A DNA stretch of 11,226 bases, from the UHGV virus genome UHGV-1656500. One strand, 5' to 3'. Source of the stretch: a virus. The position numbers and the translations under genes were made by a program. Positions 8,001 to 8,028 of this stretch are shown one piece after another. Within the stretch, counting starts at the first letter, position 1; every line of letters begins with the position of its first letter. The notes under the pieces are model-generated. The model made no database searches. It was not told the origin of the DNA and saw nothing but the letters and a program-made list of their open reading frames with translations.

Positions 8001-8028
8001 AAACCCCGTATAAACGGGGTTTTTTATT
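8001..8028 (+). terminator. Rho-independent terminator downstream of the lipoprotein gene
   Basis: aaaccccgt-ataa-acggggttt: a perfect 6-bp GC-rich stem (up to 9 bp with the A/T extension), 4-nt loop, then tttttt. Begins 21 nt after the lipoprotein stop. Confidence 0.75.

Follow-up and report, generated by a model that had tools for sequence, protein, structure and literature searches.

The UHGV virus genome UHGV-1656500 was studied over a stretch of 11,226 nt, hereafter called the window, in which all supported genes are carried by the + strand. At positions 8001-8028, a hairpin with a run of T residues is found 26 nt upstream of a 126-aa minor-tail gene. The original prediction regarded this element as a strong intrinsic terminator located inside the late tail operon. 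This raises the question of why such a terminator should stand ahead of essential tail genes, and of how these genes are then transcribed.

The window successively carries genes for the tail tube (1785-2705), a chaperone (2712-3233), the tape measure (3593-6459), a 154-aa structural protein (6459-6923) and a DUF1833 minor tail protein (6908-7408; Pfam PF08875, 5.6e-35; phrog_396 minor tail protein, 2.4e-53). Then come the genes of a 170-aa DUF4823 protein (7467-7979; Pfam PF16105, 1.4e-42), of the 126-aa minor tail protein (8049-8429; phrog_329 minor tail protein, 5.7e-13) and of a 905-aa protein of the TipJ tail-tip/host-specificity family (8426-11143; NCBIfam NF040662, 7.3e-138; phrog_469, 3.6e-279; Pfam FNIII-A_GpJ), all in the + orientation. 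The hairpin had been placed between a gpL-like and a gpK-like gene, here the DUF1833 and 126-aa genes. It is indeed inside the tail operon and upstream of the 126-aa and TipJ genes; however, it follows from the gene order that the gpL-like gene, which ends at 7408, is not directly 5' of it, the DUF4823 gene being interposed. The two labels agree with the minor tail protein PHROG matches but are otherwise positional, because PDB sequence searches with the DUF4823, DUF1833, 126-aa and TipJ-like proteins gave nothing usable. The 126-aa protein has no Pfam match and no PDB sequence match. An NCBI assembly contig (L011/L331) matches the window with 99.85% identity. Megablast against 50,697 deposited phages gave no match for the region and only patches of 73-80% identity for the whole window, and complete E. 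coli genomes gave only weak patches of similarity.

A consensus terminator scan of the window describes the hairpin (8001-8022, + strand) as a stem of nine pairs, five of them G-C, closed by a 4-nt loop. The 5' arm AAACCCCGT (8001-8009) is followed by the loop ATAA (8010-8013) and the 3' arm ACGGGGTTT (8014-8022). A 6-bp G+C-rich core, made by 8004-8009 with 8014-8019, is thus lengthened to nine pairs; the U-tract TTTTTTATT (8020-8028) has eight U in nine, and its first three T double as partners of the AAA of the 5' arm. In isolation, the hairpin has a folding energy of -12.9 kcal/mol, and the 76-nt stretch around it reaches -20 kcal/mol (z = -2.6). A terminator was strictly defined by at least six pairs, at least four of them G-C, a loop of 3-6 nt, UUU directly 3' of the stem and at least seven T in nine. 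With this definition, 8001-8028 is the sole match on both strands of the 11.2-kb window, whereas 300 dinucleotide-preserving shuffles gave a mean of 0.04 matches, with any match at all in 3.7% of them. The existence of a GC-stem/T-run terminator at this place is thereby confirmed. A G+C-rich stem, a short loop, an adjoining U-rich tract and a gene just upstream on the same strand (21 nt separate the hairpin from the TGA of the DUF4823 gene) are found together, and 8001-8028 is, judging from its sequence, very probably a working intrinsic terminator. An Rfam search of the window found no family match. A second hairpin, GCCCGG-catgt-CCGGGT then ATTTTTATG, occurs at 3554-3570, 23 nt ahead of the tape-measure start; a loose scan finds it terminator-like on both strands, and it fails the strict definition.

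Comparison with related phages indicates to which unit the hairpin belongs. Cargo aside, the 126-aa gene is always found immediately 3' of the DUF1833 gene in relatives. The junction between the two genes measures 9-12 nt in 61 of 68 relatives overall. Of 25 non-identical relatives taken from deposited phages and from GTDB species genomes, 21 have such a junction, as do 40 of 43 further ones from IMG/VR. This empty junction has the form TAAGGAnnnnnnATG, where the stop codon overlaps the ribosome-binding site. The two genes are 9 nt apart in related Klebsiella phages and in Flyfo siphovirus Tbat2_3, and the closest empty site is that of Citrobacter braakii ATCC 51113, with a 94% identical DUF1833 protein. 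In the window, the junction holds 640 bp (7409-8048, + strand) made of a leader, the DUF4823 gene, a spacer, the terminator and a short right flank with the downstream ribosome-binding site. This insert is bounded on its left edge by the TAA stop codon of the DUF1833 gene (7406-7408) and on the other side by the GGAGG ribosome-binding site of the 126-aa gene (8040-8044, + strand, read from the sequence). Its GC content is 0.40-0.43 (7350-8100), as compared with 0.51-0.57 in the flanks. Morons are known as genes with their own promoter and terminator and a deviant GC content that are expressed from a repressed prophage, an example being the gene 15 moron in the tail operon of HK97 (PMC3594210). 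The insert likewise sits between genes that are adjacent in relatives, deviates in base composition and has, by sequence, its own terminator. The hairpin is the 3' end of this moron and does not belong to the regulation of the tail operon itself.

This very cassette is common, with 82 blocks of the collection indexing the identical DUF4823 protein, and the same arrangement was seen in all nine places retrieved. The best source name for this protein is "Citrobacter sp. CK184", and the cassette-bearing genome is a probable Citrobacter prophage. The insert is also bracketed by a 10-bp direct repeat, TTAATGTTCA, at 7405-7414 and 8046-8055, the left copy of which resembles a remnant of the start of the 126-aa gene (ATGTTCA) joined to the stop codon. 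A target-site duplication was considered and rejected, because part of the repeat belongs to a right flank common to other cargos of the same slot, which lack the left copy.

The moron cargo carries a lipoprotein signal peptide with the lipobox LLAG/C (MKRFLLVSAVILLAG/C). The protein has no match in PHROGs, PADLOC or the PDB, tblastn against the 50,697 deposited phages gave none either, and a literature search found DUF4823 mentioned in no searchable paper. Homologues with 60-80% identity occur singly, as chromosomal genes with differing neighbours, in Enterobacter, Serratia, Dickeya and other Enterobacterales. The homologue of the Enterobacter cloacae complex (76% amino acid identity) is located between fliE and yedD. 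This chromosomal gene has exactly the leader ACAGGGATAGAAAA-GTG of the window and is also followed, 21 nt past its stop codon and hence at the same distance as in the window, by the hairpin AAACCCCGT-ctca-ACGGGGTTTT. Since the chromosomal gene has the same stem, the stem travelled with the gene. The T-run is longer in the phage copies than in the Enterobacter chromosomal copy. Together with the low GC content and the junction that is empty in most relatives, this homologue upholds the assignment of the terminator to a moron, as made in the original prediction. One source calls a Dickeya homologue an "integron cassette protein"; an integron attC site was rejected, since a 22-nt hairpin with a T-run does not resemble attC and the homologues occur as lone genes in unremarkable chromosomal surroundings. 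Outside this phage group, the gene of a 57% identical DUF4823 homologue, also a lipoprotein, separates the tail chaperone gene from the tape-measure gene of an unrelated siphovirus (L046-L050, about 2995-3510), and a second small secreted or membrane ORF comes next to it. This is an independent capture of the DUF4823 family as a moron, at the position that gene 15 occupies in HK97.

Within the cassette, the ribosome-binding site AGGGA of the moron gene (7455-7459, + strand), read from the sequence, is 7 nt before the GTG start. A scan for -35/-10 (sigma-70) elements found no promoter in the moron leader, and there is no conserved -35. A candidate extended -10 element, TGaTAAGAT (7428-7436, + strand), is predicted there, with TG at 7428-7429 and TAAGAT at 7431-7436, 20 nt past the upstream stop codon. 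A TAnnAT hexamer is present at the aligned place in every cassette variant (TAAGAT, TAATAT or TAGTAT), and the Enterobacter chromosomal copy reads TGaTAAAAT. The pattern TGNTAWRAT, which was defined after seeing the sequence, has a single match in the window, where about one is expected by chance. A perfect TTGACA at 7450-7455 was rejected as moron promoter: its -10 would come to lie within the ORF, and the chromosomal copy does not conserve it.

The question then is how the genes beyond the hairpin are reached. Two ways had been put forward, a restart from a promoter at 8029-8048 and a read-through of the terminator, for instance by a Q-type antiterminated late transcript. The first has to be abandoned, the stretch being only 20 nt long, occupied by the GGAGG ribosome-binding site and free of any promoter-like site in the scan. 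With no room for a promoter and none detected, read-through is therefore required. Lambdoid late operons are switched on by Q antitermination (PMC2629481), and a Q antiterminator (Pfam Antiterm, PF03589, 1.8e-50) is encoded in two sibling phages that carry the cassette (L041/L134 and L042/L060/L131). In these siblings, the Q gene comes after the YbcO and RusA genes and upstream of the lysis genes; four canonical terminators lie between Q and the holin gene, and about nine on the + strand from Q to the tail tip. Counted with the strict definition in L131 plus L060, there are about nine terminators on the + strand, as against one on the minus strand of L060 and two on that of L131. In the window's own lineage (L331), the lysis-to-tail block has four strict terminators on the + strand and none on the minus strand. 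Three of them follow the lysis/moron genes, a head gene and the major capsid gene, respectively, and the fourth is that at 8001-8028. There is thus one long same-strand operon with internal terminators to cross. A Q-type read-through appears plausible from these sibling contigs, but Q is seen there and not in the window's lineage: the siblings differ from it in their lysis cassette, and the L331 contig starts at the lysis genes, with a different endolysin. It may be added that, between the Q and holin genes (3900-5140 in L131/L134), an Hsp20/IbpA-like gene (PF00011, 9.6e-18) is bracketed by terminators. This gene is another moron, located in the late leader.

The arrangement recalls that of lambda. 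As for tR' and other late terminators overridden by Q, the terminator is canonical, on the coding strand of a long late operon and to be read through; moreover, the sibling phages have a Q-family gene (PF03589) upstream of the lysis genes, with a terminator cluster next. By analogy, a terminator-studded late operon headed by Q would correspond to the lambdoid design. Unlike lambda tR', however, 8001-8028 is not beside the late promoter; it is the passenger of a foreign gene about 17 kb downstream.

From these data we infer actual termination, read-through, promoter activity and lipoprotein function. It is likely, in our opinion, that the hairpin and its T-run are the Rho-independent terminator of a DUF4823 moron taken from an enterobacterial chromosome, which stops transcription in the lysogen and is crossed by Q-modified polymerase in late transcription. 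A promoter-gene-terminator cassette would have been inserted between the DUF1833 stop codon and the ribosome-binding site that serves the following tail gene. In lysogenic cells, the host RNA polymerase probably starts at the weak extended -10 promoter in the 58-nt leader; it would transcribe the lipoprotein gene and stop at 8020-8028, so that the tail-tip genes would stay silent. During lytic growth, a polymerase modified by a Q-type antiterminator, as suggested by the sibling phages, would make the late transcript and ignore 8001-8028 and the other terminators of the late operon, so that the 126-aa, TipJ and later genes would still be expressed. Translation of the 126-aa gene would use the ribosome-binding site kept 11 nt past the T-run. 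In addition, the hairpin probably shields the 3' end of the moron mRNA. Insulation in the lysogen combined with lytic read-through, as originally proposed, would be the classic moron model, and it agrees with the comparative evidence. The hairpin would then mark the 3' end of an independently transcribed lysogenic-conversion gene, which explains the presence of a strong terminator ahead of essential tail genes.

Alternatively, the hairpin may be a leaky attenuator for which no antitermination is needed: a partial stop would lower the dose of the tail-tip proteins with respect to the tube and tape-measure proteins, and leak-through would be enough for tail assembly. The canonical terminators that also follow the major capsid gene and other genes of abundant products in the same operon would fit such expression steps, and Q is known from the siblings, not from the window's lineage. 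However, nine pairs, a 6-bp G+C core and eight U in nine are the anatomy of an efficient terminator, and after four to nine of them in a row, hardly any transcript would reach the tail tip without processive antitermination. The sibling phages do encode Q, then a terminator cluster. Furthermore, the terminator came with the moron and is absent in the 61 relatives with an empty junction, so it is not part of the native dosage design of the operon. A leaky attenuator is thus an unlikely explanation.

A further view of the hairpin is given by the other genes found at the same place, since the DUF1833/126-aa junction exists in at least six alternative states. One contig with 96% identical flanks (L054) carries two lipoprotein genes ending with AACCCCG-cattgt-CGGGGTTTTTTCTTG. 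A Scandinavium sp. MAG (L033, 590-4000) has 3.4 kb with cI-like and antirepressor-like genes plus a lipoprotein gene, with the 3' end AAACCCCG-ctcagt-CGGGGTTTTTTATTGCCTGAAATTCGGAGGCTT. Its repressor gene is cI/LexA-like and on the reverse strand, its lipoprotein is homologous to the second one of L054, and its terminator and flank are nearly the same as those of the window. In another contig (L228, IMGVR_UViG_2811995072_000003, 1367-1718), where the flanking genes are 94-96% identical in DNA, a 352-nt cassette encodes a small hydrophobic membrane ORF behind a near-consensus sigma-70 promoter (10/12), TTGACG-16-TAAAAT with an upstream TG. It ends with AACCTCGC-tccg-GCGGGGTTTTTTATTGCCTGAAATTCGGAGGCTTA, a hairpin with another stem, followed by exactly the right flank of the window. 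A Leclercia sequence (L024) has 818 nt ending with GCCGCTT-ga-AGCGGCTTTTTTTATGAGG. In these four cases the cargo is on the same strand, and the terminator lies 16-30 nt before the start of the 126-aa (K) gene. Same-strand cargo of the slot mostly carries a terminator, but in more distant relatives (L026, L105), a 320-nt insert with a small ORF has none. Finally, Klebsiella phage ST405-OXA48phi1.3 (L002, MK416008.1, 2455-3660) has 1.2 kb inserted, comprising a small ORF on the + strand and, on the reverse strand, a gene annotated as TIR domain-containing, for which the terminator is not applicable; this gene may be an anti-phage defence gene in the tail operon. PADLOC found no defence-family match for the alternative cargos at the slot.

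Sequence conservation was studied in comparison cassettes from IMG/VR (L043-45) that occupy the same junction, with the moron 89-91% and the flanks about 80-85% identical to the window at the amino acid level. The moron coding sequence differs from that of the window at about 14% of positions, the leader at about 20%, the spacer between stop codon and hairpin at 6 of 21 and the loop at 3 of 4. No difference is found in the CCCCGT core, in the whole 3' arm or in TTTTTTATTGCC, which is unchanged across all phage-borne DUF4823 cassettes. The only stem changes are from A to G in the 5' arm, and these keep G·U pairs in the + strand RNA. Over eight hairpin variants, including those of other cargos at the slot, 95.8% of the cells of the comparison are paired; every one-sided change leads to G·U or U·G, and a two-sided change, from U-A to C-G, affects one of the nine pairs. 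Covariation proper is therefore weak, true compensatory changes being nearly absent, but since the changes are compatible with G·U pairing on the + strand only, the pattern fits a hairpin that functions in the + strand transcript. It should be noted that the conservation of the T-run and right flank may partly come from recombination or from a generally conserved start of the K gene, rather than from selection on termination; the K-gene start region is 27-29/30 identical even in distant relatives. The loop reads ATAA in the window (8010-8013) and TTAT, its reverse complement, in the near-identical cassettes L041, L042 and L060. This difference could be due to a single palindrome inversion by template switching, or to two point changes.

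The common right border raises the possibility that termination is secondary and that the sequence from the 3' half of the hairpin through the T-run into the flank (GGGGTTTTTTATTGCCTGAAATTCGGAGGCTT) acts as a recombination joint, that is, a shared linker for the swapping of cargos. Three different cargos (the DUF4823 gene of the window, the membrane ORF of L228 and the lipoprotein gene of L033) do have a common right flank, with similarity from the 3' arm of the stem onwards. The flank TTTTTTATTGCCTGAAATTCGGAGGCTT is common to the three, and from GGGGTTTTTT to the ATG they are identical or nearly so. Moreover, the 18-mer CGGGGTTTTTTATTGCCT is present, among the matches listed, in at least 120 IMG/VR contigs (L211-L330) in many contexts, so that it could offer homology for exchange. 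However, every variant keeps a complete, well-paired hairpin and a U-tract, as a working terminator should but a crossover site need not, and the Enterobacter chromosomal DUF4823 gene has the stem outside any phage. In addition, conservation is just as high over the first 90 nt of the K gene as over the flank, and the flanks may therefore be alike by common descent instead of through exchange at the hairpin. One role does not preclude the other; as the main explanation of the element, a recombination joint is quite improbable.

The 18-mer deserves a word for itself. Among the matches listed, it usually stands just before GGAG and ATG; in most cases it makes up the 3' half of an AACC(T/C)CGC-nnnn-GCGGGG hairpin, with GGAGAAAATATG and a gene start immediately after it. 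These phages therefore routinely have a terminator directly ahead of a ribosome-binding site, and on sequence grounds this looks like a recurrent terminator-plus-ribosome-binding-site joint in enterobacterial phages.

As for the A-run upstream of the stem, from which function on the minus strand had also been proposed, a bidirectional terminator that also halts antisense transcription from the tail-tip genes is hardly credible, for although the stem is perfectly palindromic with AAA beside it, and although the hairpin of the minus-strand RNA (-13.3 kcal/mol) is as stable as that of the + strand, the minus-strand RNA continues with UUUGAAAUG, with three U only after the stem and no strict minus-strand site; the A-run is AGG or AGA in L043-45, which removes the minus-strand U-tract and creates C·A mismatches where the + strand keeps G·U pairs; L228 has a further U·G pair on the + strand only, its minus-strand energy dropping to -6.8; and with all supported genes on the + strand, the window has no convergent minus-strand gene.

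The reading of 8001-8028 as the terminator of a DUF4823 moron places the element in a known class. As in the morons of HK97 and HK022, an extra gene of deviant GC content, coding for a small envelope protein, sits with its own factor-independent terminator between tail genes that are neighbours in relatives, and late transcription has to pass through the element. The differences from these morons lie in the slot (the DUF1833/126-aa junction), in the cargo (a DUF4823 lipoprotein) and in the promoter, for which there is a candidate extended -10 only. The arrangement is therefore ordinary and well understood, and its significance beyond annotation is small. What it adds is that DUF4823, an uncharacterised lipoprotein family, has been recruited as a prophage moron at least twice, and that one tail-gene junction of Citrobacter/Klebsiella-type siphoviruses is a hot spot whose states include a TIR-domain gene. 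A comparable situation is that of the "ant moron" region of P22-like late operons, of which ten types occur in sixteen genomes (PMC2629481). In both cases, a fixed slot of the late operon receives many alternative gene sets among syntenic phages; however, the phage type, the slot and the cargos differ, and the slot studied here is empty in most relatives.

The cargo itself invites comparison with other envelope proteins of phages. The cor genes of phi80, N15 and HK022 and the llp gene of T5 are prophage or phage lipoprotein genes whose products block receptors. Those genes, like that of DUF4823, code for small lipoproteins and stand close to tail genes in siphoviruses, whether temperate or lytic; expression apart from the virion genes would be a further common point. 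DUF4823 has no PHROG, PADLOC or phage match and thus no sequence relationship to cor or llp, so that a receptor-blocking role in superinfection exclusion would be speculation. In a bolder and rather doubtful extension, the junction would be a dedicated, reusable cargo slot, the right border of which (terminator 3' half plus ribosome-binding site, GGGGTTTTTTATTGCCT...GGAGG) would provide the homology for swapping promoter-gene cassettes between phages and chromosomes. Terminators would then be the linkers of moron traffic. DUF4823, found as a moron in the tail operons of two unrelated siphoviruses, would in that case be a novel envelope factor encoded by prophages, with superinfection exclusion as one conceivable role. 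In any case, the border from terminator to ribosome-binding site, common to several cargos, offers a concrete place to study moron exchange.

A last observation concerns the tape-measure gene. In the window, 13 bp (GCAGGCTCAGGAA) that are present in the closest relatives (L011, L005) are missing at 5676-5677, and the gene is broken into two ORFs (3593-5728 and 5671-6459), as compared with one gene of 952-1166 aa in relatives. The loss may make this prophage copy tail-defective, unless it is an artefact of the assembly. Because the deletion splits the tape-measure gene, expression of the tail may no longer matter in this genome. A metagenome scaffold (L332, ENA ERZ28599772 scaffold_955, 1-10602) starts where the window starts and has the genes 192-602, 989-1369 and 1785-2705 at identical coordinates. 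The window may represent a sister assembly of this contig end; in the scaffold, the tape-measure gene is intact, with 962 aa.
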